Shown: in pieces, positions 2-33,265 of the stretch
How positions within the stretch are numbered: position 1 is the stretch's first letter
How the letters are laid out: each line of letters opens with the position of its first letter
NCBI GenBank assembly: GCA_016213785.1
Contig: JACQZQ010000071.1
Coordinates: 15,377 to 79,376 of the forward strand
DNA: 64,000 nucleotides
Direction: 5' to 3'
Source of the DNA: Acidobacteriota bacterium
GTDB taxonomy: Bacteria > Acidobacteriota > Blastocatellia > Chloracidobacteriales > JADJPF01
Made by a program: the position numbers and the translations under genes
The notes under the pieces: generated by a model
Told to the model about the DNA's origin: nothing
The model's input: the letters and a program-made list of their open reading frames with translations, nothing else
The model's database searches: none

Positions 2-2296
2 GAAAATACCAATCAAGTAAAACCCAAAGAAGAACTTAAGAATGTTGCTGAAGAGATTGAAAGAGATATATCCCCATCAAATAACCAGAGAGATACAAAT
101 AATATAAATAGATCTGCCATTAGCTGGCTACGTAGCTATAGCAATTACTTAACTCCTCGCTTAGGCGTTTCTGCTGATTTAGGAGCATTTCTAGCTACCT
201 ATGTTCGTAACTTAATACTTAATCTTATTACTATAGTTTCTGCTTTATCAGCAGTGCTTTTAATTCCTCGTATTATAGCCTTTTTTACTAAAGCAATTGA
301 TGAAGGACAGTTAAACGATATTTTTTTAGTGATAAGTTTAGTAGGTTTTCTAGTAAGTTTAGTATTTATTATATTTAACCTATATATTATGAAAGCATCT
401 TTTTCTGAAAATAGCAGGAAAAAATGGCTAAATAATTTTTTAACATCCTCTAGAGGTATAGTTTTTTTAATTCTTATTCCTATCCTAATAAGTAGCTGGT
501 CTCTTTGCCAATCAAAATGGCTTTTTGCCTTAAAACCTTTTTCTTATATTGATTATCCTGCTGACAAAAATACTTTTGGCTTTCCATTAGTTTTGGTCAG
601 TCTTTCACTATCAGGTATTTTATTTACTGGGCTGTTTAATAAAATTTTAAGACTAAGAGATGAACAAAGGGAATGGTTGGCTAGGCTTAATGGTCTAATA
701 TCTATTTGCAATTTAATATGGCTACTGTTTTTTGTAATGGCACTCTATAGCCCTATTATTATTGGTTTTTTAGGGTGCTGGGTTCAAACTGGTTTGGGAA
801 TAGGATGGATTGTTTCAACACTAAGTGGGCTTTTAGCTGGTAAAAGTGATAAGACTAGTGGAACAAACACTAGTAAAAGTTTTGCTTTAGAAATTGTAGC
901 TAAAATTGCTCCATATATTTTTATTATTGGGTTATTAGCAGTTTTATCTTTAGGAATACATTCATTTCTACTCAGGCTCTCTAATCTTAATGAACCTTTT
1001 TTTATTGAAAGTATATGTAGTGTTTCTAGTAATTTACCTGCTATTAGAAATACCTATCTAGGGCAAGTTTGGAGAACACTAAACATAGAATTTTTAGGAC
1101 TCGCATTTATTGCTTTTTCAACTATTGCCTTACTAGTTTCTTGGGCAATAAATATTAATGAGTTTTCTATACACCTACCTTATCGTAACAGGCTTGTAAG
1201 AGCTTATTTAGGTGCATCTAATAAAAATCGTAAATCAGGAGCTTATACTAATAAATTCACTGGATTTAACAAAACTGACGATATAAAACTCTTAGATATT
1301 ATTCCTAGCGATAGTGTTGGTTATCCTGGCCCCTATCATATTGTTAATGCTACATTAAATCTTGTTGCTGATACAGACCTAGCTTGGCAACAAAGAAAAG
1401 CAGCTTCCTTTGTTTTTACACCTAAGTATTCTGGATATATTATTAACCATGGTGCAGATAGCGATAAAAGCCCTAAGGAAGCTTATAGAAAAAATGCCGA
1501 TGGTTATGGAGGAGAAGTTACTTTAGGAACAGCTTTAGCAATTTCTGGGGCTGCGGCAAGCCCTAACATGGGTTTTTATAGTTCCCCTACCTTAGGTTTT
1601 TTAATGACTGTTTTTAACGTTCGCTTAGGTTGGTGGTTAGGTAATCCAAGTCAAGAAAAATGGCAGGAATCTTGTCCAACACTAGGGTTATTTTACTTAG
1701 CATTTGAACTATTAGGGCGAACAAATGCTAAAAGAAATTTTGTTTATCTCTCAGATGGAGGTCATTTTGAGAATTTAGGAATTTATGAGCTTGTTCGCCG
1801 TAGATGCCGTTATATAGTTGCTAGTGATGCTGAAGCTGATTTAGACTTAAATTTTAATTCTCTAGGAGAAGTAATTAGAAAATGCTACATAGATTTTGGT
1901 ATTGAGATTGAAATAGACTTAGACCAAATTCGTCGATCTAAAGAGACAGGTTATAGTACCAAGCATTGTGCAGTAGGAAGAATCCATTATGAAAAAGTTG
2001 ATGAAGGGCAAACTTCAGGGTTTTTAGTTTACCTAAAATCTTCTTTAGTTGGAAATGAGGAAGAAGATATACTTAATTACGCTAAGCTTAATCCTGATTT
2101 TCCACACCAATCAACCGCTGATCAATGGTTTGATGAAGCCCAGTTTGAAAGCTACCGCAAGTTAGGTTATAGAGTTGCAAAAGAACCTTTTGAAAATGTT
2201 GTTAAAGAACTTAAACATGATTCAAAGGAAAATAAATCTCAAAGTGTTAACCAAGAGTCTCTTTTTGCTGAACTTAAAAATATTTGTAAAAACTAG
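2..2296 (+). CDS. Membrane-embedded patatin/cPLA2-like phospholipase (5'-partial)
   Basis: Frame is open from base 2 (…WLRSYSNYLTPRLG… lies upstream of the ORF-track start at 254); many TM segments; C-terminal motifs YRNRLVRAYLGAS, SGAAASPNMG, LSDGGHFENLG, FPHQSTADQWFDEAQFESY. Confidence 0.75.
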   Translation, partial: ENTNQVKPKEELKNVAEEIERDISPSNNQRDTNNINRSAISWLRSYSNYLTPRLGVSADLGAFLATYVRNLILNLITIVSALSAVLLIPRIIAFFTKAIDEGQLNDIFLVISLVGFLVSLVFIIFNLYIMKASFSENSRKKWLNNFLTSSRGIVFLILIPILISSWSLCQSKWLFALKPFSYIDYPADKNTFGFPLVLVSLSLSGILFTGLFNKILRLRDEQREWLARLNGLISICNLIWLLFFVMALYSPIIIGFLGCWVQTGLGIGWIVSTLSGLLAGKSDKTSGTNTSKSFALEIVAKIAPYIFIIGLLAVLSLGIHSFLLRLSNLNEPFFIESICSVSSNLPAIRNTYLGQVWRTLNIEFLGLAFIAFSTIALLVSWAININEFSIHLPYRNRLVRAYLGASNKNRKSGAYTNKFTGFNKTDDIKLLDIIPSDSVGYPGPYHIVNATLNLVADTDLAWQQRKAASFVFTPKYSGYIINHGADSDKSPKEAYRKNADGYGGEVTLGTALAISGAAASPNMGFYSSPTLGFLMTVFNVRLGWWLGNPSQEKWQESCPTLGLFYLAFELLGRTNAKRNFVYLSDGGHFENLGIYELVRRRCRYIVASDAEADLDLNFNSLGEVIRKCYIDFGIEIEIDLDQIRRSKETGYSTKHCAVGRIHYEKVDEGQTSGFLVYLKSSLVGNEEEDILNYAKLNPDFPHQSTADQWFDEAQFESYRKLGYRVAKEPFENVVKELKHDSKENKSQSVNQESLFAELKNICKN

Positions 2297-3216
2297 ACTT
2301 GGCTACATGCCTTAGACAAAATAGGCGTATGATCAATATTTTCAATTGTTTTAGGAATTAAGTAATATTTTGATAGTTCATCCCAGTCTAGATTACGTAT
2401 AGTAACTATTTCATTTAGGAATATACTAACCCAAATATTTCCTATTCTTGAGCTAGATTCTTCTTGTTGTAATTTATGTGTGGCTATTTCTACGTAATCT
2501 AAATCAAGCTCAAAGGCTATAAAATTGCGTCCTAAACGTTTAGCCGCTAGAGCAGTTGTTCCTGTTCCAGAAAAAGGGTCTAAAACTATATCTGCTTGGT
2601 CTGTTGACATAAGAATTATTCGCTCAAGTAGATGTAAGGGTAGTTGACAAGGGTGTTTATCTCTATATTTATTATGTTTTATACGATGAATATCTGTCCA
2701 AACATCAGAAATTAGCGGCCCAAAAGGATGAAGCCCTGCTTTTTTACCACCATAATCTTTATGTAAATAATTACATTTACGGCATCTTTTATGCTGATAA
2801 CGGATTTCATAAAATTTATTTTGCTCTATATTTTTTGCATAGTATAAAATGCCATAGTGAGATGGTTGTAAGGTTTTACCCATAGGTAATGTTGGGGCAT
2901 CCCAAGAAATCCAATGCTTAAAGTAAGCGTTTTTATTTAAGAAATTGGTATAGTAGGTTAACCATTTTGGAATATTATGTACAAAAATTGAGCCAGTAGG
3001 TTTAGTAACTCGAACCATTTCTTTAAGCCATTTTTCACACCAACCTAGGTATTCTTTAAGCTCAAGACTATCGCTAGTACTATTATATTTCTTTTTTAGA
3101 TTAAATGGAGGGTCAGCAAAAGTAACATCAATACTGTTATCAGGTATATTTCTTAGTAAATCTAAACAGTCACCTTGAGTAATTTTATTTAAATATTTAT
3201 TAAGTGTTTTTTCCAA
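2293..3216 (-). CDS. Site-specific DNA methyltransferase (N6-A/N4-C, beta-class motif order)
   Basis: Catalytic DPPF motif near the N-terminus, HPCQLP, and SAM-binding VLDPFSGTGTT near the C-terminus. Confidence 0.9.
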   Translation of the reverse strand: MEKTLNKYLNKITQGDCLDLLRNIPDNSIDVTFADPPFNLKKKYNSTSDSLELKEYLGWCEKWLKEMVRVTKPTGSIFVHNIPKWLTYYTNFLNKNAYFKHWISWDAPTLPMGKTLQPSHYGILYYAKNIEQNKFYEIRYQHKRCRKCNYLHKDYGGKKAGLHPFGPLISDVWTDIHRIKHNKYRDKHPCQLPLHLLERIILMSTDQADIVLDPFSGTGTTALAAKRLGRNFIAFELDLDYVEIATHKLQQEESSSRIGNIWVSIFLNEIVTIRNLDWDELSKYYLIPKTIENIDHTPILSKACSQV

Positions 3217-22711: not shown

Positions 22712-23872
22712 ATGAAAATTCATGAATATCAAGCAAAAGCATTATTAGCTAAATATGGTGTAAAAGTACCAAAAAGCAAAATGGTTCGTAACTCGTCAGA
22801 TGTGGCAAGTATTGTTAAAGAATTAGGTCTTCCTGTTGTTGTAAAAGCTCAAATTCATGCAGGAGGACGTGGTAAAGGCGGAGGTGTTAAATTAGCCCGT
22901 AGTTTAGAAGAAGCTGAAAATTTAGCTAGTCAAATGCTAGGGATGAAATTAGTAACCCATCAAACCGGGCCAGAAGGTAGAGAAGTTCAAACCCTACTTA
23001 TTGAAGAAGGGTTAAAAATTAAACAGGAGTTCTACTTAAGCGTAGTCTTAGATCGCGTTACTTCTCAAATAGTTTTTATGGCCTCTAAAGCAGGCGGTAT
23101 GGATATAGAAGAAGTTGCTGCACATAGCCCTGAAGCAATTCTTAAGGAATATATTGATCCAGCCGTTGGAATGCAGGCTTTTCAAGCTCGTAAAATAGCT
23201 TTTGGCTTAGGTCTTTCTGCTGAGCTAGTTTCTTTAGCAACCAAATTTATTTTATCTCTTTATAGAGCTTTTGTAGAGCTTGATGCATCACTTTTAGAAA
23301 TAAATCCATTTTTACTTACTGAAGATGGAGAACTTTATGCTTTAGATGCTAAAGTAAATTTTGATGATAATGCACTATATCGTCATAAGGATTTTGCAGA
23401 ACTTAGAGACTTAAACGAAGAGGAACCTTTAGAAATAGAGGCTTCAAAATATGACCTTAACTATATAAAACTAGATGGCACAATAGGTTGTATGGTAAAT
23501 GGAGCAGGGCTAGCAATGGCTACTATGGATATTATTAAACTTGCTGGTGGAGAGCCTGCTAACTTTTTAGATGTTGGTGGTGGTGCTTCTCAAGCAAGAG
23601 TAGAAAACGCTTTTCGTATCCTTTTGGCTGATAAAAAAGTTCGTGCAGTTTTAATTAATATTTTTGGTGGAATTGTACGCTGTGATATGGTTGCTGCTGG
23701 AGTTATTGCAGCCGCAAAAAACCTTGGCATAGAAATTCCTGTTGTTGTTAGACTTGAAGGAACAAACGTAGAACGTGCCCGCGAACTACTTAATGAATCA
23801 GGACTTAATTTTACTACTGCCGCAGGTATGAAAGATGCCGCCGAAAAAGTAGTAGCTCTTGCAGGTCAATAA
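22712..23872 (+). CDS. sucC: Succinyl-CoA synthetase beta subunit
   Basis: [56 protein letters not shown]. Confidence 0.97.
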
Positions 23873-23902
23873 TTAATATAAGTAAGAGTTTTACTTATTA
23901 TC

Positions 23903-23939
23903 AAAAGCGTGTAACTAAAGGGGATTACACGCTTTTTTT
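23903..23939 (+). terminator. Intrinsic terminator after sucC
   Basis: AAAAGCGTGTAA-N10-TTACACGCTTTT followed by a T-run. Confidence 0.85.
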
Positions 23940-24094
23940 CTTTTAATTAGGCAACCAGTAAATCCATTTTTCCAAGTTTAAATCCATTTTTTTGTTAAAA
24001 AAATATTTACCTATGAAAAGATAGCTATAATAAAAAGTTAGTTAATTAATTTATAATTAACTAATTAACTCTCAAACTAAAAATAATTTTGTAC

Positions 24095-24110
24095 TGGCAT
24101 TGTAGTTGCA
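24095..24110 (+). promoter_or_regulatory. Sigma54 (RpoN) -24/-12 promoter
   Basis: TGGCAT-TGTAG-TTGCA against consensus TGGCAC-N5-TTGCW; GG (24096-97) and GC (24108-09) correctly spaced; intergenic and oriented toward 24387. Confidence 0.6.
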
Positions 24111-24138
24111 TTGATGGCAAAACAATACAAACTAAAAA

Positions 24139-24217
24139 TAGACATTATCGGAATAAGTATTTTGCTATTGATTTATAAGGACTTAAAAAAGATTTCTAGT
24201 ATTTCCGATAATGTCTA
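24139..24217. repeat. 15-bp perfect inverted repeat with 49-nt spacer
   Basis: TAGACATTATCGGAA (24139-24153) / TTCCGATAATGTCTA (24203-24217). Confidence 0.85.
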
Positions 24218-24386
24218 AGTGTTAATACTTGTACAATTTAATCTATAGGGCTTTTGCCATGTTAATTACAACCATCTAAACACACAAATAACCGCTTCAT
24301 AATTTCTAAATAAAACCAACAAACTTATTCTTTATATCTTATTAATTTTTATTAATTCTTATTAAGAAAAATAAGGCTAAACTCCT

Positions 24387-25289
24387 ATGTCTACAGTAAA
24401 TCCTGCAATTAATGGTGCAAAAGCTACTCTAGCTAACCTATTTAAGACTTATAGACGACAAATACTAGGCACATATTTTTTATTTAATTTAGAAAATTTG
24501 CTAGCCCTTACACAACCTCTTGCCTTAGGCTTAGCTATCAATAGTCTGCTATCTCAGACCTATTGGGGAATAACTATTTTGGCTATTCAGCACTTATCTC
24601 ACCTTTTAATTAGTTCCTTACGTCAAGCCTATGATAGTAGAATCTTTACTAGAATTTACACTGATTTGGTTACTCAAGTAGTGGTAGGGCAAAGAAAACA
24701 AGATATTTCTGTATCAAAAGTTGTTGCTAGATCTGCTTTGTCTAGAGAGTTTGTAGACTTTTTTGAGCATAATATCCCAATGATAGTCCGATCCTTATAT
24801 TCTATTATTGGTTCTTTATTAATGCTATTTTATTATGACTCAGTATTAGTCTTATATTGTTTGCTTTTAGTAATACCTGCAAGTATTGTAAATTACTTTT
24901 ATAGCCAAAAAACTTATCTTCTTAATGGAAAACTAAATGATCAGATTGAAAAAGAAGTCATAGTTATTGAAGAAGGTGTTTTTACAAATATTCAAGACCA
25001 TTATAGAGCAATTTCTAAATGGAAAATAAAATTGTCTGATCTAGGGGCTGTTAACTTTAGTTTAATGGAGTTATTTATACTTAGTCTTTTTATAGCTTCA
25101 TTAATACGCTACTGCCATATACCTAATGTTTCAACAGGAGATATATTTGCTACTTTTAATTATGTGATAACATTTGTTACTGGTTTAGACACAGTTCCTT
25201 TACTTGTTCAACAAATTACTAGATTATTGGATATAGGTCAAAGAATACAACTTCTTAATGATTTTGACCCTACTAACTCAGAACAATAA
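24387..25289 (+). CDS. Stand-alone ABC-exporter six-TM domain protein (no ATPase domain)
   Basis: About 6 hydrophobic segments; LENLL…PLALGLAIN, RQAYDSRIFTRIY, ARSALSREFVDFFE resemble the ABC_membrane_3-type family; no Walker motifs. Confidence 0.75.
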   Translation: MSTVNPAINGAKATLANLFKTYRRQILGTYFLFNLENLLALTQPLALGLAINSLLSQTYWGITILAIQHLSHLLISSLRQAYDSRIFTRIYTDLVTQVVVGQRKQDISVSKVVARSALSREFVDFFEHNIPMIVRSLYSIIGSLLMLFYYDSVLVLYCLLLVIPASIVNYFYSQKTYLLNGKLNDQIEKEVIVIEEGVFTNIQDHYRAISKWKIKLSDLGAVNFSLMELFILSLFIASLIRYCHIPNVSTGDIFATFNYVITFVTGLDTVPLLVQQITRLLDIGQRIQLLNDFDPTNSEQ

Positions 25290-25345
25290 AAACGGCATAG
25301 CAATAGAGGCATAATAATAAGTATTTGGGTTGTTGAAGACCTTGA

Positions 25346-26434
25346 TTGGCAATTATACTACATATGACAAAGGACAAAAATATCCTTAATACTTTTAACT
25401 TAATTGAACTGGAAAAAGAAGGCTATTCTAAGCTTGAAATAGGCTTAGCCTTATGTATGATAGGTAATTTTAATAGTGCCTCAGAATTTCTTTTAGCTCA
25501 TTGTCATAAAAATCGATCTAGAAAACAATCAAATAAACTTGATTATTTAATACCTATTAAAACTAATAAAGCAAGATTGCTTTATGATATTGAGCAGTTT
25601 TATTTCTTAAAAGAAAAGGGGTTGTTAAATTCAACTTGTGAGTGCTTAATTAAAGCTTATTTAGATGTTTTAGCCTCTGCTCCAGAAAACTCTAGTGAAG
25701 GCGAATTTTTTAATGTTTCTAAAAATGCGCCTAAAGAATTCTTAGAAAACTATAATCAGCTAATTTATTTTGATAAACCAACTACTGAATGTAAAAGAGC
25801 CATCAACCCTGAAATTGATTGGGCAAGAATTGATTTAGATTTTTGTGAGAACTCAAAAGACTTTGTTGTTTTAGATAATTTTCTTACAAAAGAAGCCCTT
25901 AATGAACTTTATAGGTTTTGTTTGCTATCTACTGTTTGGGAGCAAATAAACACAGTTAAAGACTTTTATGCCATTCTTTCTAATGGTTTGGCTTCTCCAA
26001 TAATCTTCCAAATAGCTTATGAATTTCGTTGTGCTTTGGCTAATTTACTAGCTGAACTTTATTTATTTGATGGTTGGGCAATTAAATACTGTGGAAAGGA
26101 AACAGAAGTCGGTATTCATGCTGATAGAGGAAAAATTACTCTCAATTTTTGGATTACTCCTGATAGTGCTAATTTAATACCAGGTACAGGAGGATTACGT
26201 ATTTGGAATAGGCATCTTCCAAATACGTATTTTGAACAGTATGAGCAAGAAAAAAAAGCATTTATAGAAAAAGCCCTAAGGGCACCTGATATTAAATCAA
26301 CTCTTGTTACTTATAAATGTAATCGGGCTATTATTTTTCGCTCAAGTTTAGCTCATGGAACAGAGCCATTTATGTTTTCTGATAATTATTCAGAACGTAG
26401 GATGAACATTACATTATTATTTGGCAAAATATAG
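25346..26434 (+). CDS. 2OG-Fe(II) oxygenase-fold protein with helical N-terminal region
   Basis: VVLDNFL, IHAD (HxD), LNFWITPDSANL…GGL, YKCNRAIIFRSSLAH (distal His), RMNITLLFG (2OG-binding Arg). Start may be ATG 25364. Confidence 0.78.
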   Translation: MAIILHMTKDKNILNTFNLIELEKEGYSKLEIGLALCMIGNFNSASEFLLAHCHKNRSRKQSNKLDYLIPIKTNKARLLYDIEQFYFLKEKGLLNSTCECLIKAYLDVLASAPENSSEGEFFNVSKNAPKEFLENYNQLIYFDKPTTECKRAINPEIDWARIDLDFCENSKDFVVLDNFLTKEALNELYRFCLLSTVWEQINTVKDFYAILSNGLASPIIFQIAYEFRCALANLLAELYLFDGWAIKYCGKETEVGIHADRGKITLNFWITPDSANLIPGTGGLRIWNRHLPNTYFEQYEQEKKAFIEKALRAPDIKSTLVTYKCNRAIIFRSSLAHGTEPFMFSDNYSERRMNITLLFGKI

Positions 26435-26522
26435 TCAGCCCAAGACCCCCGTTTTATTTAAGAATAAGTATAAAATTTACTATTTTGTATCCTATAATAT
26501 TAGCGTAATATTTTTTACTAGA

Positions 26523-26552
26523 TTGCTTTTTACAACAGTGATTTGTTACCAT
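26523..26552 (+). promoter_or_regulatory. Candidate sigma70 promoter for the small acidic peptide gene
   Basis: TTGCTT-N18-TACCAT with extended -10 TG at 26544-45. Confidence 0.4.
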
Positions 26553-26731
26553 TGCCATCGGCAGTTGGTTAGGTTGCTAAAGTAGTTTCTTAAATTACCT
26601 TACCTACTTTCATTTCGACAAATAATTTTCTAAGAAAATTATATTATTTGCGGCTTTTTTAAGCTGTGTACTAGTAGGATTTTCTTTAATCTTATTATTA
26701 TAATTAATTTAACTTAAGGAGAACAAATATT

Positions 26732-26872
26732 ATGCCAACCCCAAGAGGCGGAGTAGGATCAGAAAGATCTGTAGATGATGCACCAAAAGATGTACAAGAA
26801 TTAGCAGAAGACTTAGAATCAGCAGCAAAAGAACAAGAAGAGCAGTCAGACAGTAGTTCAGAAGAAAAATAG
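26732..26872 (+). CDS. 46-aa acidic peptide (unannotated; candidate precursor or substrate peptide)
   Basis: AAGGAG RBS at 26716-26721, ATG 26732; MPTPRGGVGSERSVDDAPKDVQELAEDLESAAKEQEEQSDSSSEEK-TAG. Confidence 0.78.
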   Translation: MPTPRGGVGSERSVDDAPKDVQELAEDLESAAKEQEEQSDSSSEEK

Positions 26873-26919
26873 ACCAATACATAAATTGATCTATACTCAA
26901 GTCTTTAGCAAAATTTCTT

Positions 26920-26960
26920 TACAAGAAGATCCTAAGTACTATACTTAGAGTCTTCTTGTA
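26920..26960 (+). terminator. Long stem-loop between the peptide gene and the second oxygenase
   Basis: TACAAGAAGA-tc-CTAAGTA-cta-TACTTAG-ag-TCTTCTTGTA; no U-tract, so possibly a transcript-stabilising or partial-readthrough hairpin. Confidence 0.6.
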
Positions 26961-26974
26961 GGTATATTAAATAG

Positions 26975-27598
26975 ATGTTAAGGAAAAAAAGTTTAATTTC
27001 ACAAAAATACCAAAATACAAATTTATTAACTAAGGAAGAAAGAGATTTTATAAAAAGGGATTTTCCTTGGACACACTATGTTCTAGATGGTTTTATAGAA
27101 GAAAAACCATTTAAAAGAATGCAAAAAACCTTCTTATCTAAAAAACACAAATTCTTGATAAAAGAAAATGATCCCTATTTTGTACAATATGCACTTTTAA
27201 GATACCTTCCTCTTGCAAAAGTTTTTTATTCTTTAGAGTTCAAAAATTTGCTAGAAACATTTTCAGGCTTTTCTCTTTCTCTTAACACTTCAAATTATGT
27301 TCAAGTAAGATATATGAACATAGATTCGCCAGAACTCCCTATACATATAGATACTCTTGAAGGTAGGGCAATTATAGCAATTTATTATTTGTCTCCTAAT
27401 TGGGTAGAAGATTCAGGTGGGGAACTTTGTCTTTATGATGAATTTGAAGAAAATATCCCTAAAACAATTATTAAGCCTGTAGAAAATAGGCTGCTGTTTT
27501 TTTCCTCAAGTATTACTACTTGGCATAGTATCAAAAAAGTTAATAATTGGGAAAGATATAGTGTTTTAAGTACTTGGAATGTTAAAAAACTTAAATAA
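26975..27598 (+). CDS. 2OG-Fe(II) oxygenase, prolyl-4-hydroxylase-like
   Basis: FPWTHYVLDGF, LPIHID (HxD), IYYLSPNW…GGELCLY, PVENRLLFF, TWHS, RYS. Confidence 0.85.
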   Translation: MLRKKSLISQKYQNTNLLTKEERDFIKRDFPWTHYVLDGFIEEKPFKRMQKTFLSKKHKFLIKENDPYFVQYALLRYLPLAKVFYSLEFKNLLETFSGFSLSLNTSNYVQVRYMNIDSPELPIHIDTLEGRAIIAIYYLSPNWVEDSGGELCLYDEFEENIPKTIIKPVENRLLFFSSSITTWHSIKKVNNWERYSVLSTWNVKKLK

Positions 27599-27646
27599 GA
27601 AATAATAGCTAAATATTGCTTGGAATATAGAAGTAATTTTTAGTAC

Positions 27647-30600
27647 TTACTCCTCCATTACTAATCTAAAACCAACAGCCATTTCACGAGCACTAGGTGT
27701 AGCAGAAGCCCTATCGGCTGACCTACAATTTGTAAACCAACTTCCTCCTCTAACAACTCGAGCATGCCCTGTATTGGGGCCTTTAGGATCTACAAGATGT
27801 TCTTTAGGATAATCACCATACCAATCTAAACAAAACTCCCAAACATTCCCATACATATCATATAAGCCCCAAGGGTTGGATTTTTTTAAGCCTACAACAT
27901 TAAGTTTATCCAAGGAATTGTTTACATACCAGGCCATCTCATCTAAATTTCCAGAGTGAGAGCCTTTAGTTCCAGCACGACAAGCATACTCCCATTCTGA
28001 CTCTGTAGGAAGACGGTATTTTTTTCCTGTAGCTTTTGATAGCCTAGCACAAAACTCTACAGCGTCTTCCCAGCTTATGTTATTTACTGGAAAATATTCT
28101 CCTTTTAAGAAAAAAGATGATGAGTTAAGAGATTTGTTAATTTTTGGTAATGCTACTACAGCTTTCCATTGTTCTTGGGTAATCTCATATTTGCCAATAT
28201 AAAACCCAGAAGAAATCGTTACTTTATGCAAGTTTTCATCTACATTGTGACCTTGCTCTTCTAAAGGTGAACCCATATCAAAAACTCCTGCCGAAATCTT
28301 AACCAGTTCTATTTTTATTCCACTACCTAAGTCTTCTACATATAAGTTATTATCTAAGTTGTTATCTAAGCTATTATTTAAGCTATTTTTTGAGATTTCG
28401 TTAGTTTCTATATTTTCAGGATTTACCGATTTTTTTAATTCAGGTATTATCAAACGACCTTCTTGCAAATACATATTAACTTTTTCTTTAACTACTTTTG
28501 AAACTTCTGAAGGAATGTGTGTTTCTGCTACTATTTGCCATATTTTTGCCTTTTTGTCTTCGCTTGCAGTTAGTATTTTTTCTCCTTTTCCAGAAAAGAT
28601 TCCACTATTTAAGCTTTCTTCATGTTCTGCTAAAGCAACAAGAAATCGACCGCTAGATTTTTCCCACATTCTTAAGGTTTTATCATAAGAACTAGTAATA
28701 ATAAATTTTCCATCAGGGCTAAACTCACCTTTTGCAATACCATCGTTATGGCCTTCTAGTATAGCTGTTAAAACCCCGCTAGTGTCCCAAAGACTAGCTT
28801 TTGTGTCAGTGCTTGTAACTAAGATATTTTTTCCATCTAAACTAAATTTAACATCAGTAATACCTGCTTGATGATTTTTTAATGTATGAAGTAATTTTCC
28901 TTCAGGTATTTGCCAGACTTTAGCTGTTTTATCAATGCTTCCTGTTATAAGGAGTTTTCCATCAGGGCTAAAATCAATGCTTACTATAGCACCCTGATGG
29001 CTGCTTAAAGTGTTTTTTAATTCCCCTGACTTGCTATCCCAAATCTTAGCAACTCTATCTGATGAAGCTGTAGCAATTAAACTGGAGTCTTTATTATAAG
29101 AAACCGCATTTATTGGGCTTTTATGATCTTCTAGGCTTTTTATTAGTCTCCCTGACCTGCTATCCCAAATCTTAGCCGTTTTATCATAACTAATTGTAAC
29201 TATTTGTTTTCCATCAGGACTAAATAGAGCTTTATTTAATCCATCTGTATGACCTGAGAGTGTAAAAAGTAAGCCACCATTAAAAACATCCCAAACCTTA
29301 GCCGTTTTATCAAGGCTTGCTGTTACTAAAAACTTTCCATCAGAGCTAAAGTTAACAGACGTTACTATATCTTCATGCCCTTTTAAGTTAAAAAGCTCTT
29401 TTCCATTCCAAACTTGCCAGAGCCTAGCCGTCTTATCTTTACTAGCAGTTGCTACTAAAGAATCATCAGGGCTAAACATAGCCATTGTAATAGCATCTGT
29501 ATGCTTATCTAATGTAACTGGAGGGCGATTTTCTACTTTTGCTAGTGCTACTGAAAGCATATACTTAAGTGCTAGGCTATCAGCCCCTTTACTATAAGCT
29601 TCGCTTAAGTAAACAGCAGCGCCTTCTAGATTGCCTCTAAGCATTTCCTGACGACCTTGCTCTTCATAAAGTTTTAAGGTTTCTAGGAGTTGTTGTTTAG
29701 TTTGATAACGTTGATAGAAGAGAACTGCTGAGCCTATTATTAATATTAGCATTGCTGCTATTATTAGGTTTCTTTTAATACGTTGGCTACGAGTAGCATC
29801 TAATATACTTGCTTGAGCAAATTCTTCTTCTAAATCGGTTAATTTGCCTTTGTAATGCGAGCGCCAAAGCTGATACTCAGCTAAGGCTTCATGTCGCCAA
29901 AGTAAGCCTTTAGGCCGACCTCGCTCTTCCCATTGACGAGCAGCAGAACGAAGTTGATCGCGAAGTCTAGCACCTTCAGCCATTTCTTGCCGCCATTTAA
30001 CTAAACGAGGCCAGGCCGAGAGTAGCGCTTCATGAATTATTTCTATACGCTCAACCCCTTTTTCTCCTTCAGTCGCAATAAGTAGTCTAGCAGAGATTAA
30101 TTTTTCTAATACTTTCTCGCTATCACTAGATTTTCCAAGTAGTTGTAAAAGTTCTGGACGAGTAAAAACGGCTCTGGTCCCTTCGCTTGTTACTAGATGG
30201 CGAAAAGCTTCTCTTACAAGCGATTGTTCTGCTTGGGTTAATTGCTGCATTAGCTCTTCAGCATGTTTAGCTAATGCCCCTACAACTCCACCCATAGCTT
30301 CGTAACTTCTTCGCCTAAGCTGCTTAAACTGTTTATCGCGTTGTTCCCAAAGTTTTGCTGTTGTAAAGGCAAGTAAGGGTAATGCACTAGGCTGCCCTAT
30401 TAGCTGATCTACTATCTCTAAAGGTAGGTTGGTGTCTTCAAATTCATAGCCTGCACGATAGGCTGGTTCTGTAAGTATCCTTAAAAGTTGTGTGGAATCA
30501 GGGGTTGTAAGAATTTCTAGCCCTTGAGAGAGTCTATCTTTTAGCCCGCGCAATTCTTTAGCTCTAACTAAAAAATCATCCCGCATAGTTAAAATTACCC

Positions 30601-33265
30601 TTACAGGGTCATCCTCTGAACGTGCTGCTGATATTATTGCTTCTACATAAAGCTTTTGTTCTTCTTTGTCTGAGCAAAGCGTTATTATTTCCTCAAATTG
30701 GTCTATTACTAATAAAAATTTACTATGCTGCCTTATAGCAAAACGGCGTAAGACTTTACCTAACGCATTTATATCTTTTTGTAGGTCTGTTTTTAGGTTA
30801 GATGAGTCTATGCCTAATTGTAATAGCTTTGAAAAAAGGGTTATAAGAGGAGAAAGCCCTGGACGGACTGTTAAAACTTGCCAGTTTTTATCAAGCCCAG
30901 CAATAACACCTGCTTGAATAAAAGAACTTTTTCCTGCTCCTGATGAACCAATTACTGTAAGTAAAGATTGAATACGTAAACGATTTAGAAAGCTTTCGGT
31001 TTCTTTCTCCCTACCAAAGAAAAGAGCCGAATCTTGTTTAGAAAAAGAGGTTAAGCCTAAATAAGGTGATTTTTCTAATAGAATATCTGCTTGGCTTTTA
31101 TCATCATCTGTAAAAAAATGGTTTTTTAACCATTCCCAAGGTGCTTCTGTTTCTATCTCAAAGCCTTCAGGAAAGGAAACAGATTTTGCTCCACTACGTC
31201 CTTTACGCTCAAGTAAAAATACCTCCTGTAATGCTTCTGGAGTTGGAGGGGCTATTTCTACTAAAGGCCAAAGTGATAAAACTAAATAACCATTAGAATC
31301 TACTAAAATGGCTTTATTTTTAACTAAATTAGTATTTTTTAAAGTAATCCTATTAAGTTCTTTAGATACACCCATCCATTTAGTTGCCTTCTGGTCTTCT
31401 GGTATAACTAAATAATAGTCTGCTAGCCATAGTGTAGCTCTAAGTAAAACATTAAGCTTATCTAAAAATTTAATTAAAAGGGTTAGTATTTTTTCTTCTT
31501 TTAATGAAGTTGTAGAAGCAACATCTCGTTGTAAATCTAGGAGTTGAGAAAAAGTCTCTGTTAAGGGGCTAAGTTGTTCACTTCCTGAAGCAAAAAATAG
31601 TGAGACAAGTTCAGGGATAGGAAAAGCATCTCTTTTATTAGCAAAAGCACGGCATAGCTCTCTAGATAGTTCTATCCACTGTGATTCATTTAGCCCTTCT
31701 TTACGTAATGTATTTATAAATTTATTGGTTGACTCATTATCTTGTTCTTGGCTATGGGTGCTACTAACATAACTGGCTAAAGCAAGTATGCCTAAGTAAC
31801 GTACTAAAACACGAAATACTAAAAGTAGGCGATCTCTAAATTGATAAGCATTACGAGAAGCTAGTAGGCTAGCAACCGTATCAGCTAAAGGTTTTGGGGC
31901 ATTAGTAAGTATATTTTCTTTTAATATTTCATCTAAAAGAGGTAAGGTTACTTTTTCATCATCAAAATTTGTTGCTTCACGAAAGGCTTTAGCAAAATCT
32001 AGGGTTGTTTGATAGCGTTCTTCAGGTTTTTTAGCCAAAGCTTTTTGTATTACTTGATTAAGTCTTGAAGGGAGATTTTCTTTAAGTTGTGGAACGGGTT
32101 TAGCGGCATGTGCTCCATAGAGTTCAAACCCTTGTTCCTTAAATGGAAGTTCACCCATTATAACTTGATAGGCTAAAACACCTAAAGAATAAATATCGCT
32201 ACGAACATCAACATTTGCCCCATTTTGCCATTGTTCAGGCGACATATATGGAGGTGAGCCTATAAATCCTTGTGTTTTAATAGTGTATTCTTCTATATTG
32301 GTTTGACCCTCAAAGCCTTTAGGATCAGTTGCTAGCTGTTTATTAGCATCAGTCTTTTTACTTAAAAAATCAGATTTTCCATTTTTATTAACTTCATTAT
32401 TAACTTCAATAACGGTTTCTTGCCCCTTAATAACATAGTCAATAATAAGAGTTTTCTCTCCAGTAAAAACATTTTCAATGACTGTGTTTTCATTATTATC
32501 ATTATTATCATTATTATCATTAATAGCACCATTACTAGACTCATCAAAAATGGTATTTTGGCTTTTACTCCCACTACCGTTACTTCCATTACTTGAAGTT
32601 AGTTTATTAATAATAGTAAGAGTTTCTTGGGCATTATGTTTTTTTATCTGCTCAGGCTCTTGTAATTCATTAGGTAAAATAGAGAAAATACTTTCACTAG
32701 AATGCTGTTTAGCTATAGCCTTATTAGGAGAAGTACTGGCAGGACTAACATTAAGACTTAAGCCTTTAGCAATGCCAAAGTCAAGAAGTTTAGGAAGTAG
32801 TCTACCAGCACGGGAAATAACCATAACATTTGCTGGTTTTAAGTCTCGATGAATTATTCCTCGTTCGTGTGCTGTATGGACAACTTCACAAATTTTATCA
32901 AGTAGAGGGACAAATTTTTCTAAAGGTAGTGGGCCTTGGGACTTAAGTATTTTATTGAGTGGAGTACCTTGGACAAGCTCCATTGCAATCCAAAGTAGTC
33001 CATCGCTTTCGGCTCCAAATGAATAGATATGAGCACAATAAGGGTGCTCAAGACGCGATGCTAACAAGGCTTCACGCTTAAAACGCTCTATTGTAACTTG
33101 GTTAGTTCTATGACGAGTATGTAGAATTTTTATTACGGCTTCACGAGCAAGAGTTATTTGAGTAGCTTTATAAACAGCACCAAACCCACCTTCTCCTAAT
33201 TTTTCTTTAACTAAAAAATCTCCTAATGTCCTCCCAATTATTGAGTCTACTCTATTGATAGCCAT
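27647..33265 (-). CDS. Multidomain Ser/Thr kinase - STAND-type NTPase - WD40 repeats - FGE/sulfatase-modifying-factor-like domain
   Basis: Kinase (LGEGGFGAVY, HRDLKPAN, DFG, YMSPEQ); SPYLGL…FFGRE, GSSGAGKSS, IDQFEE; one TM; about 8 WD40 repeats; RLPTESEWEYACRAG, NPWGLYDMYGNVWE, RGGSW, GFRLV. Confidence 0.92.
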   Translation of the reverse strand: MAINRVDSIIGRTLGDFLVKEKLGEGGFGAVYKATQITLAREAVIKILHTRHRTNQVTIERFKREALLASRLEHPYCAHIYSFGAESDGLLWIAMELVQGTPLNKILKSQGPLPLEKFVPLLDKICEVVHTAHERGIIHRDLKPANVMVISRAGRLLPKLLDFGIAKGLSLNVSPASTSPNKAIAKQHSSESIFSILPNELQEPEQIKKHNAQETLTIINKLTSSNGSNGSGSKSQNTIFDESSNGAINDNNDNNDNNENTVIENVFTGEKTLIIDYVIKGQETVIEVNNEVNKNGKSDFLSKKTDANKQLATDPKGFEGQTNIEEYTIKTQGFIGSPPYMSPEQWQNGANVDVRSDIYSLGVLAYQVIMGELPFKEQGFELYGAHAAKPVPQLKENLPSRLNQVIQKALAKKPEERYQTTLDFAKAFREATNFDDEKVTLPLLDEILKENILTNAPKPLADTVASLLASRNAYQFRDRLLLVFRVLVRYLGILALASYVSSTHSQEQDNESTNKFINTLRKEGLNESQWIELSRELCRAFANKRDAFPIPELVSLFFASGSEQLSPLTETFSQLLDLQRDVASTTSLKEEKILTLLIKFLDKLNVLLRATLWLADYYLVIPEDQKATKWMGVSKELNRITLKNTNLVKNKAILVDSNGYLVLSLWPLVEIAPPTPEALQEVFLLERKGRSGAKSVSFPEGFEIETEAPWEWLKNHFFTDDDKSQADILLEKSPYLGLTSFSKQDSALFFGREKETESFLNRLRIQSLLTVIGSSGAGKSSFIQAGVIAGLDKNWQVLTVRPGLSPLITLFSKLLQLGIDSSNLKTDLQKDINALGKVLRRFAIRQHSKFLLVIDQFEEIITLCSDKEEQKLYVEAIISAARSEDDPVRVILTMRDDFLVRAKELRGLKDRLSQGLEILTTPDSTQLLRILTEPAYRAGYEFEDTNLPLEIVDQLIGQPSALPLLAFTTAKLWEQRDKQFKQLRRRSYEAMGGVVGALAKHAEELMQQLTQAEQSLVREAFRHLVTSEGTRAVFTRPELLQLLGKSSDSEKVLEKLISARLLIATEGEKGVERIEIIHEALLSAWPRLVKWRQEMAEGARLRDQLRSAARQWEERGRPKGLLWRHEALAEYQLWRSHYKGKLTDLEEEFAQASILDATRSQRIKRNLIIAAMLILIIGSAVLFYQRYQTKQQLLETLKLYEEQGRQEMLRGNLEGAAVYLSEAYSKGADSLALKYMLSVALAKVENRPPVTLDKHTDAITMAMFSPDDSLVATASKDKTARLWQVWNGKELFNLKGHEDIVTSVNFSSDGKFLVTASLDKTAKVWDVFNGGLLFTLSGHTDGLNKALFSPDGKQIVTISYDKTAKIWDSRSGRLIKSLEDHKSPINAVSYNKDSSLIATASSDRVAKIWDSKSGELKNTLSSHQGAIVSIDFSPDGKLLITGSIDKTAKVWQIPEGKLLHTLKNHQAGITDVKFSLDGKNILVTSTDTKASLWDTSGVLTAILEGHNDGIAKGEFSPDGKFIITSSYDKTLRMWEKSSGRFLVALAEHEESLNSGIFSGKGEKILTASEDKKAKIWQIVAETHIPSEVSKVVKEKVNMYLQEGRLIIPELKKSVNPENIETNEISKNSLNNSLDNNLDNNLYVEDLGSGIKIELVKISAGVFDMGSPLEEQGHNVDENLHKVTISSGFYIGKYEITQEQWKAVVALPKINKSLNSSSFFLKGEYFPVNNISWEDAVEFCARLSKATGKKYRLPTESEWEYACRAGTKGSHSGNLDEMAWYVNNSLDKLNVVGLKKSNPWGLYDMYGNVWEFCLDWYGDYPKEHLVDPKGPNTGHARVVRGGSWFTNCRSADRASATPSAREMAVGFRLVMEE

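Follow-up and report, generated by a model that had tools for sequence, protein, structure and literature searches.

The subject of this report is a group of four plus-strand genes in a 64,000-nucleotide stretch, hereafter the window, of contig JACQZQ010000071.1 from an Acidobacteriota bacterium. The open reading frame (ORF) listing and direct reading of the DNA agree on their layout, with proteins of 300, 362, 46 and 207 residues encoded at 24387-25289, 25346-26434, 26732-26872 and 26975-27598, all in the orientation that a first-pass annotation of the same DNA had reported. That annotation took the four genes for a candidate cluster producing a peptide made by the ribosome and modified after translation (RiPP). 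Our analysis points to a smaller functional unit, which is probably a two-gene module composed of a small protein of ~46-60 residues and a dedicated hydroxylase, Oxy2, that together would constitute a new enzyme-substrate pair. The features of the locus that bear on this reading are as follows.

24387-25289, plus strand: ABC_membrane_3 (PF13748) gene for a six-helix ATP-binding cassette (ABC) membrane protein without a nucleotide-binding domain (NBD), an accessory neighbour of the putative module
25364-26434, plus strand (listed ORF from TTG 25346): Oxy1, a 2-oxoglutarate (2OG)-Fe(II) oxygenase resembling the prolyl hydroxylase domain (PHD) enzymes
26615-26700, plus strand: promoter-like block plus 5' leader; a 10-copy alignment shows their conservation upstream of the peptide genes
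26732-26872, plus strand: peptide gene, 46 residues, with a conserved N-terminal segment, an amphipathic helix and a variable hydrophilic tail
26919-26961, plus strand: strong hairpin lacking a T-run, in the spacer from the peptide gene to Oxy2, identified by folding against shuffled sequences
26975-27598, plus strand: Oxy2, an OGFOD1/PHD-like 2OG-Fe(II) oxygenase and the peptide's conserved partner

As judged from the reading frames, the 46-residue ORF is a real gene and did not arise by chance. Of all frames, just the sense frame is open throughout the 10 homologous copies, the others being stopped in at least some, and length differences among the copies amount to whole codons. An AAGGAG sequence lies ~10 nt 5' of the ATG in the window, and all 10 copies carry a ribosome-binding site of the GGAG type. 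Coding status was judged from frame openness; the ratio of nonsynonymous to synonymous change (dN/dS) did not decide it. The first-pass description of an unannotated peptide gene thus holds as far as the gene is concerned and fails on the word unannotated, since homologues already appear as "hypothetical protein" in public metagenome-assembled genome (MAG) records. The peptide of the window has a net charge of -9, and among the 70,186 six-frame ORFs of the window genome (G000) it is the single copy of its family.

Conservation is concentrated in the N-terminal ~30 residues, and the tails past about residue 35 cannot be aligned. M1, G6, G9, R12 and L24 are invariant in the 10 aligned copies; when the distant members P0076-P0081 are added, invariance or pattern is retained at G9, at R12, in the helix and at L24 only. 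The prolines noted earlier at positions 2, 4 and 18 are present in the window peptide. P4 and K/R5 are common in the family and not invariant, P4 being replaced by T or V in two copies, and position 13, a proline elsewhere, is S in the window. At residue 2 every copy has P, A or G, and loss of the initiator Met would accordingly be expected under the usual rule. The Asp/Glu/Ser-rich acidity that stood out in the first-pass annotation is not a family property: conservation does not extend to the acidic tail, the whole peptides of the 10 copies have net charges between -9 and +5 (six acidic, two neutral and two basic), and no Asp or Glu column is invariant in the alignments.

The DNA around the peptide gene carries possible expression signals. 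In the 10-copy alignment, conserved blocks with -35/-10-like hexamers lie 40-110 nt upstream of the peptide ATG, and in the window one such site falls at 26615-26642. These sites are not enriched over shuffled sequences (19 promoter-like sites against 18.5 expected, and two terminator-like sites against 1.6), which makes any individual site weak evidence. The hairpin at 26919-26961 has a centroid energy of -21.7 kcal/mol and a z-score of -3.76, with none of 200 shuffles as good, and may act as an attenuator or stabiliser. Hairpins with T-runs were seen by eye 3' of the peptide gene in several other copies. Together, these sequence features suggest that the small gene is expressed separately and strongly, with less read-through into the enzyme gene. 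At 26879, just past the peptide stop codon, contigs of two other metagenomes (X2 and X4) carry a 5-base insertion, AAAAG, a strain variation in the spacer that precedes the hairpin. An Rfam search over 23800-27800 gave nothing near a gathering score, the two weak matches having E values of ~0.25.

Oxy2 matches PF13640 (49.1 bits) and PF13661 (49.6 bits) above their cut-off of 27. The residues of its iron triad and the 2OG-binding arginine (H124-I-D126, H184 and R194) do not vary among the 14 sequences aligned. The AlphaFold2 (AF2) model, with a predicted local distance difference test (pLDDT) score of 85.9, adopts the double-stranded beta-helix (DSBH), or jelly-roll, fold, and a Foldseek search with it returned 356 Protein Data Bank (PDB) matches at E ≤ 0.001. 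The top entries among the matches listed are OGFOD1, PolD, Tpa1 and PHD2, with OGFOD1 (4nhx) aligned at an E value of 1.2e-9 and 29% identity. A profile search of PDB sequences likewise gave OGFOD1 (1.3e-12) and a hypoxia-inducible factor (HIF) prolyl hydroxylase (8.3e-12). By motif and predicted fold, Oxy2 is a member of the 2OG-Fe(II) oxygenase superfamily. The two-domain architecture of OGFOD1 and Tpa1 is absent: the 207 residues of Oxy2 correspond to the catalytic domain only, with template modelling (TM) scores of 0.67 on the query and 0.33 on the target. Against the model for the RiPP hydroxylase YhhC (NF041706), Oxy2 gives a weak full-length match of 37.4 bits, far below the equivalog cut-off of 150.

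Oxy2 was found in the window genome and in all five congeners (G001-G005) and in none of 35 further relatives from the family, order and class. Including L031, a metagenome contig of the same Blastocatellia-like genus-level group, these seven genomes or contigs hold nine intact Oxy2 genes, and every one of the nine has a peptide gene within 470 nt. The peptide gene lies upstream on the same strand for eight of the nine and is divergent in G001. In G004, two peptide-Oxy2 pairs flank an ABC_membrane_3 gene on the opposite strand. On L031 a single ABC_membrane_3 gene occurs together with three peptide genes and two Oxy2 genes, one of which has a peptide gene on both sides. The module is flanked by a kinase gene in five loci and by a different neighbour in G003 and G005. 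Over the nine pairs, peptide identity goes hand in hand with Oxy2 identity (Mantel r 0.82, p 0.0003), which shows, at the level of sequence, inheritance as a unit; such a correlation is expected of co-inherited modules and is no proof of co-evolution.

The peptide family is tiny. A word-based search of 5.8 billion clusters found 11 peptide clusters, and an exhaustive profile search of 1.84 billion representatives gave 13 matches, one of them spurious, leaving ~12 clusters. Oxy2 has 15 clusters, 14 of them close. Pattern scans of genomes and of metagenomes for Oxy2 returned close relatives only (4 and 3 loci, respectively). Among 401 acidobacterial genomes, Oxy2-like sequences approaching full length were found only in the window genome and in G189, a high-GC genome of another acidobacterial family; the other nine matches are partial, none beginning before profile position 31 and most beginning at 120-200, eight of them in open frames of 220-317 residues and one in a frame of 430. 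In G189, a 56-residue peptide-like ORF (hhalign probability 91%) precedes a split Oxy2-like gene consisting of a 68-residue and a 131-residue ORF, which adjoins a 334-residue gene resembling insertion sequence (IS)-type transposases. From its sequence, this locus appears to be a decayed copy of the module, perhaps acquired by transfer, and has the following coordinates.

L019 (G189:C23), 1483-2335, minus strand, and L038, 5020-6024: decayed G189 module

In the locus of a 41%-identical Oxy2 relative (L033) no peptide gene was found, with the limit that its Oxy2 begins 112 nt from the contig end and the upstream side cannot be judged. The spurious profile match, P0075 (795 residues), is a repeat protein that matches only profile columns 10-31, which belong to the helix part, nineteen times over. 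With ~19 copies of a ~30-35-residue unit, each ending in GKR, it reads like a eukaryotic kexin-type multi-copy peptide precursor. P0084, 592 residues long and grouped in one of the peptide clusters, seems to be an ORF read in the wrong frame and was likewise set aside. Two third-party annotation (TPA) records, L014 and L017, are titled "uncultured Clostridia bacterium" and yet their contigs group with Blastocatellia MAGs by genome taxonomy, a likely mislabel. At the level of listings and abstracts, the literature held no published description of the module or of the peptide family.

Co-folding of the peptide with Oxy2, from a 10-row peptide and a 14-row enzyme alignment, was carried out in three runs with three controls. 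The runs gave interaction prediction scores from aligned errors (ipSAE) of 0.85, 0.88 and 0.87 (median 0.87), while the best of the three controls scored 0.00. The calibration mark for this score is reached by 58 of 80 solved complexes and by two of 110 mismatched pairs, and is only rough in the present case, the alignments being of our own making. At least 91% of contacts are common to the runs, with a partner pLDDT of at least 76, and the interface, which comprises ~85-90 contacts, is driven by the peptide helix. On the peptide side it involves residues 4-14, 17-18, 20-21, 24-25, 27-29, 31-32 and 35. The contacts of lowest predicted error are those of peptide residues 18-32 (V21, L24, A25, L28 and their neighbours) with Oxy2 residues 74-90 and 103-109, and further Oxy2 contacts are scattered over 61-110. 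Peptide residues 4-14 touch Oxy2 residues 121-128, which include H124 and D126, and residues 132, 134, 157, 178, 180, 198 and 200. The predicted contact positions coincide with the conserved peptide columns, namely G6, G9, R12, the hydrophobic positions 14, 17 and 21, and L24. The model supports binding of the peptide to Oxy2 in a substrate-like pose, catalysis being a separate matter.

The earlier suggestion that the peptide is tied to a tailoring-type 2OG oxygenase is therefore borne out for Oxy2 by both lines of evidence, linkage in nine of nine cases and a co-fold score of 0.87 against 0.00. The feature expected of a RiPP locus, a short precursor gene beside an enzyme that binds it, is likewise present here by prediction. 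We take the pair to be a dedicated one because of this linkage, the intact catalytic motifs, the folds and the controlled co-fold, with catalysis on the peptide, the site modified and the fate of the product being inferred. In the proposed mechanism, the helical subdomain of Oxy2 (residues ~74-110) would grip the hydrophobic face of the amphipathic helix of the peptide (residues ~14-35, around L24), and the N-terminal segment 4-14, with the motif [KR]-G-x-x-G-x-x-R, would be stretched across the jelly-roll's open end, above the iron site formed by H124-x-D126...H184. One side chain of this segment would then be hydroxylated at the expense of O2 and 2-oxoglutarate. The target is most likely R12 or an adjoining residue, since R12 provides the only invariant side chain within residues 4-14. 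The hydrophilic tail would be free to vary, and the product could be either a minimal RiPP or a small protein that stays in the cell in modified form.

The enzyme encoded upstream of the peptide gene, Oxy1, matches no Pfam or NCBIfam model at E ≤ 1 and was for this reason placed in an uncurated branch of the 2OG-Fe(II) oxygenases. Its candidate iron ligands and 2OG arginine (H258-A-D260, H337 and R352) are invariant in 23 sequences, its AF2 model has a pLDDT of 88.8 and its top Foldseek match is PHD2 (E 2e-8, TM 0.59 on the target), while its atlas look-alikes fall in clusters named "Fe2OG dioxygenase" and in clusters resembling prolyl 4-hydroxylases (P4H) with tetratricopeptide repeats (TPR). 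From the triad, the arginine and the predicted DSBH fold, Oxy1 is a member of the superfamily, and the earlier description of two different 2OG-Fe(II) oxygenases with HAD…H…R and HID…H…R motifs proved accurate, both motifs being intact and invariant in the family alignments. By our own count, 36 of 48 detected Oxy1 homologues have N-terminal TPR Pfam domains, where the window copy has a short helical region only. A database copy of the protein has 356 residues and starts at ATG 25364, and a second strain (X2) reads C at 25346; the start is thus probably ATG 25364 and not the listed TTG 25346.

With the window Oxy1 as query, the gene was found in one of 41 genomes, the window genome, and in none of the 40 others, which include the five congeners. 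In a phylum-wide search with the Oxy1 alignment, in which four candidates per genome were scored, all listed matches outside the window genome lay within the first ~185 of 436 profile positions, in or beside the TPR-bearing N-terminal part; this search was swamped by TPR repeats and is uninformative on the distribution of the catalytic domain, and neither it nor the unpublished genomes among its matches (G063, G087 and G183) underlies any conclusion here. Contigs of equal length, 58,574 bases, are on record for an Oxy1 relative (67% identity) and for an Oxy2 relative (80%), and the same holds, at 21,473 bases, for an Oxy1 relative and a relative of the peptide (69%). These coincidences of length hint that Oxy1, Oxy2 and the peptide may be linked in one further species, a point in favour of the four-gene cluster. 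In P0003, an Oxy1 relative of 504 residues and 59% identity from a 2176-base metagenome contig, an N-terminal RidA/YjgF domain (PF01042) replaces the TPR region; this is either another fusion partner for the Oxy1 family or a gene-calling fusion.

The first gene of the four spans the whole PF13748 model (positions 3-237 of 237, E 2.2e-51), and this transmembrane domain (TMD) model is the only one it matches, in agreement with the first-pass description of a six-helix ABC membrane protein devoid of an NBD. ABC exporters combine a TMD with an NBD, and no NBD was found in this protein or adjacent to its gene, the flanking genes being sucC and Oxy1. ABC_membrane_3 was found in three of the 41 genomes (G000, G004 and G005, thus three of the six in the genus) and was not found in G001-G003. 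It adjoins peptide or Oxy2 genes in G000, G004 and L031, three of the four genomes or contigs of the group that have PF13748, and in G005 it is on another contig, beside homologues of the genes that flank the module in G003. In the phylum, seven of 301 genomes (G000 included) have PF13748, as do none of 14 control genomes. At the seven loci in the six other genomes, the 1.5-kb flanks are free of ORFs resembling Oxy1, Oxy2 or the peptide, and the PF13748 products there too are ~280-340 residues long and lack an NBD. No functional study of PF13748/ABC_membrane_3 was found in literature listings.

The wider surroundings are of a housekeeping kind, with genes for an extracytoplasmic function (ECF) sigma factor, OmpH and a pentapeptide-repeat protein as well as leuS; an M14 carboxypeptidase is encoded on the far side of leuS, at a distance of ~9 kb. 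No protease, peptidase-containing ABC transporter (PCAT) or RiPP recognition element (RRE) was found, as the first-pass annotation had already remarked for protease and RRE, and among the genes from 17 to 40 kb there is no leader or follower protease, PCAT or NBD-bearing ABC exporter of the sort that marks RiPP clusters. The nearest lone ABC ATPase lies ~6 kb upstream, not adjacent. The boundaries of the four-gene group are given below.

22712-23872: sucC (Pfam ATP-grasp_2 and Ligase_CoA)
~23906-23939, plus strand: sucC terminator read directly from the DNA, a 9-bp GC-rich hairpin followed by a T-run; left boundary, outside the module
27647-33265, minus strand: convergent gene for a 1872-residue protein with Pkinase, nSTAND1 NTPase and WD40 domains and a C-terminal formylglycine-generating enzyme (FGE)-sulfatase domain

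Both boundaries had been named earlier, and both were recovered, the left one as the hairpin and T-run just listed, which the consensus terminator scan missed (its loop is 10 nt), and the right one as a minus-strand gene with a Pkinase domain. The 3' end of this giant kinase gene faces the peptide/Oxy2 module in G000, G001, G002, G004 and L031 and does not do so in G003 and G005. The peptide tails are rich in Ser and Thr, and their phosphorylation by the facing kinase is conceivable. On the left, the gene that comes after sucC and its terminator is ABC_membrane_3, not sucD; sucCD is the usual operon layout. A 3278-nt contig from an independent freshwater metagenome, which covers 24267-27539 of the window, keeps the four-gene order at ~98% identity, and the order in the window is therefore no assembly artefact.

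Several points weigh against a dedicated enzyme-substrate pair. No residue typical of known hydroxylation targets is invariant in the peptide, P4 and P13 being variable. Pooled over codons 2-27, dN/dS is ~1 (pS, the proportion of synonymous differences, 0.36, and pN, the nonsynonymous proportion, 0.34), and apart from a few columns the peptide, as read from its sequence, is weakly constrained. The linkage counts come from close kin and hence are not independent, and the family amounts to about a dozen clusters. Lastly, the co-fold score is the model's own confidence and no measurement, and by it a substrate and an inhibitor are indistinguishable. One could therefore argue that the adjacency has no functional meaning and is mere synteny in close relatives, since the clear cases all stem from one genus-level group. 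We regard this as very improbable. The pair is kept while its flanks differ (the kinase in G000, G001, G002, G004 and L031, another neighbour in G003 and G005) and is duplicated as a unit in G004 and L031; the peptide gene may be upstream, divergent or downstream and yet is always beside Oxy2, the remote decayed copy in G189 retains both parts, and the co-fold controls stayed at 0.00. Somewhat less improbable, though still hardly to be expected, is that the peptide regulates Oxy2, as a pseudo-substrate, inhibitor or adaptor that gates its action on another protein. The large helix-driven interface predicted here would suit a regulator, as would the lack of an invariant classical target residue and the fact that large cellular proteins are the targets of OGFOD1, Tpa1 and PHD2, the nearest relatives of solved structure. 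Yet the model positions the conserved N-terminal segment at the HxD motif in the manner of a substrate, and, in RiPP systems, modules of a tailoring oxygenase and an adjacent small gene usually represent an enzyme and its substrate.

The remaining alternatives retain the peptide as substrate and differ in the scope of the system. In the four-gene RiPP cluster originally proposed, both oxygenases hydroxylate Asp, Glu or Pro residues of the acidic peptide, the ABC-type protein exports it and the product chelates metals. The genes are indeed contiguous and co-oriented in the window and in the freshwater contig, and ABC_membrane_3 recurs beside peptide/Oxy2 genes in G000, G004 and L031. RiPP Asp beta-hydroxylases of the 2OG class are also known, namely YhhC, CinX/DurX, CanE and SmaO, according to the excerpts of PMC12186529 consulted, and Oxy2 weakly matches the YhhC model. 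The four genes are not a conserved unit, however: with the window Oxy1 as query, none of the 40 other genomes gave a match, not even the five congeners in which the peptide and Oxy2 are retained; ABC_membrane_3 went undetected in G001-G003 and is on another contig in G005; and a gene-neighbourhood comparison of the kind first proposed bore out the co-occurrence of peptide and Oxy2 and not that of Oxy1 and ABC_membrane_3. Export of the peptide finds nothing in its favour beyond the adjacency of a membrane protein that has no NBD in or beside it and whose relatives at the seven loci in the six other PF13748-bearing genomes of the phylum have no oxygenase or peptide gene within 1.5 kb. A beta-hydroxy-Asp chelator is unlikely as the function of the family because the acidic tail is not conserved, with no invariant Asp or Glu and charges from -9 to +5. 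Given in addition the YhhC score far under the cut-off, the housekeeping neighbours and the lack of a protease, PCAT or RRE, we judge the four-gene cluster to be improbable, about as much so as a regulatory peptide. In the two-gene module that we favour, ABC_membrane_3 and Oxy1 would be lineage-specific accessories added beside it in the window genome and not part of the core.

A variant with slightly better prospects, although also unlikely, is a minimal RiPP-like or signalling peptide, in which Oxy2 is the only class-defining enzyme, the core is N-terminal, the helix serves as a "follower" and a housekeeping protease releases a product that acts outside the cell or as a signal. The layout resembles that of a precursor, with a small gene predicted to be monocistronic and strongly translated and a hairpin before the enzyme gene; in some genomes duplicated enzyme genes are accompanied by two or three peptide copies that have diversified; the enzyme is predicted to recognise a helix apart from the segment at its active site; and ABC_membrane_3 recurs as a neighbour. 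Set against these are the lack of a protease, an NBD-bearing transporter, a signal or double-glycine leader and an immunity gene, and the observation that the variable part of the peptide is a low-complexity tail and not a defined core. Our boldest proposal, which we put forward tentatively and with less than even expectation, is that the dedicated pair represents an undescribed minimal system in which Oxy2 as the sole enzyme recognises the C-terminal helix and hydroxylates the N-terminal G-x-x-R, possibly at the arginine, the product being either the first of a new RiPP class, its core N-terminal and its follower a helix, or a bacterial switch that senses O2, 2OG or iron in a manner akin to PHD-HIF, where hydroxylation of the dedicated small protein would report O2 status.

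Among known systems, two groups of hydroxylases come close to the putative Oxy2-peptide pair. Like Oxy2, the ribosomal-protein prolyl hydroxylases OGFOD1/Tpa1/Ofd1 and the HIF prolyl hydroxylase PHD2 (EGLN1) carry an HxD...H triad and a 2OG-binding Arg on a jelly-roll, and these enzymes hydroxylate a residue in an extended protein segment. In contrast to the single 207-residue domain of Oxy2, OGFOD1 and Tpa1 have a second domain; and whereas the substrates of OGFOD1 and PHD2 are uS12 and HIF, the presumed substrate of Oxy2 is a dedicated mini-protein encoded next to it, in which proline is not invariant. Bottromycin-type precursors combine an N-terminal core with a C-terminal follower, and the peptide is likewise predicted to place its N-terminal segment at the active site and its helix C-terminally; this is an analogy of layout only, as the chemistry and enzymes of bottromycin are entirely different and the peptide locus is without processing enzymes. 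Stand-alone PF13748 proteins lack an NBD, as the window copy does, and adjoin oxygenase and peptide genes only in the genus-level group of the window. The second group comprises the RiPP hydroxylases YhhC (triceptides), CinX/DurX (lanthipeptides), CanE and SmaO, which, in the excerpts of PMC12186529, resemble Oxy2 in being 2OG oxygenases encoded beside a short peptide; they are secondary tailoring enzymes, mostly Asp beta-hydroxylases, from clusters that also encode a class-defining enzyme, a protease for the leader and, as a rule, a PCAT exporter. Oxy2, by contrast, stands alone with its peptide, which has no invariant Asp.

Protein- and peptide-hydroxylating 2OG oxygenases are well known, those of RiPP pathways being accessory enzymes in larger clusters. 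To our knowledge, few bacterial protein or peptide hydroxylases have an identified dedicated substrate. In the system described here, the likely substrate is named by the genome itself, as a compact pair of ~50 and 207 residues. The module is narrow in distribution, and the neighbouring genes in the window should not be taken together with it as one cluster. If our interpretation is correct, the pair would represent a new peptide family and a new mode of recognition, in which a helix docks on a PHD-like enzyme, and possibly a new type of hydroxylation site, and it would provide a function for a branch of the proteins annotated as "Tpa1-like proline hydroxylase".

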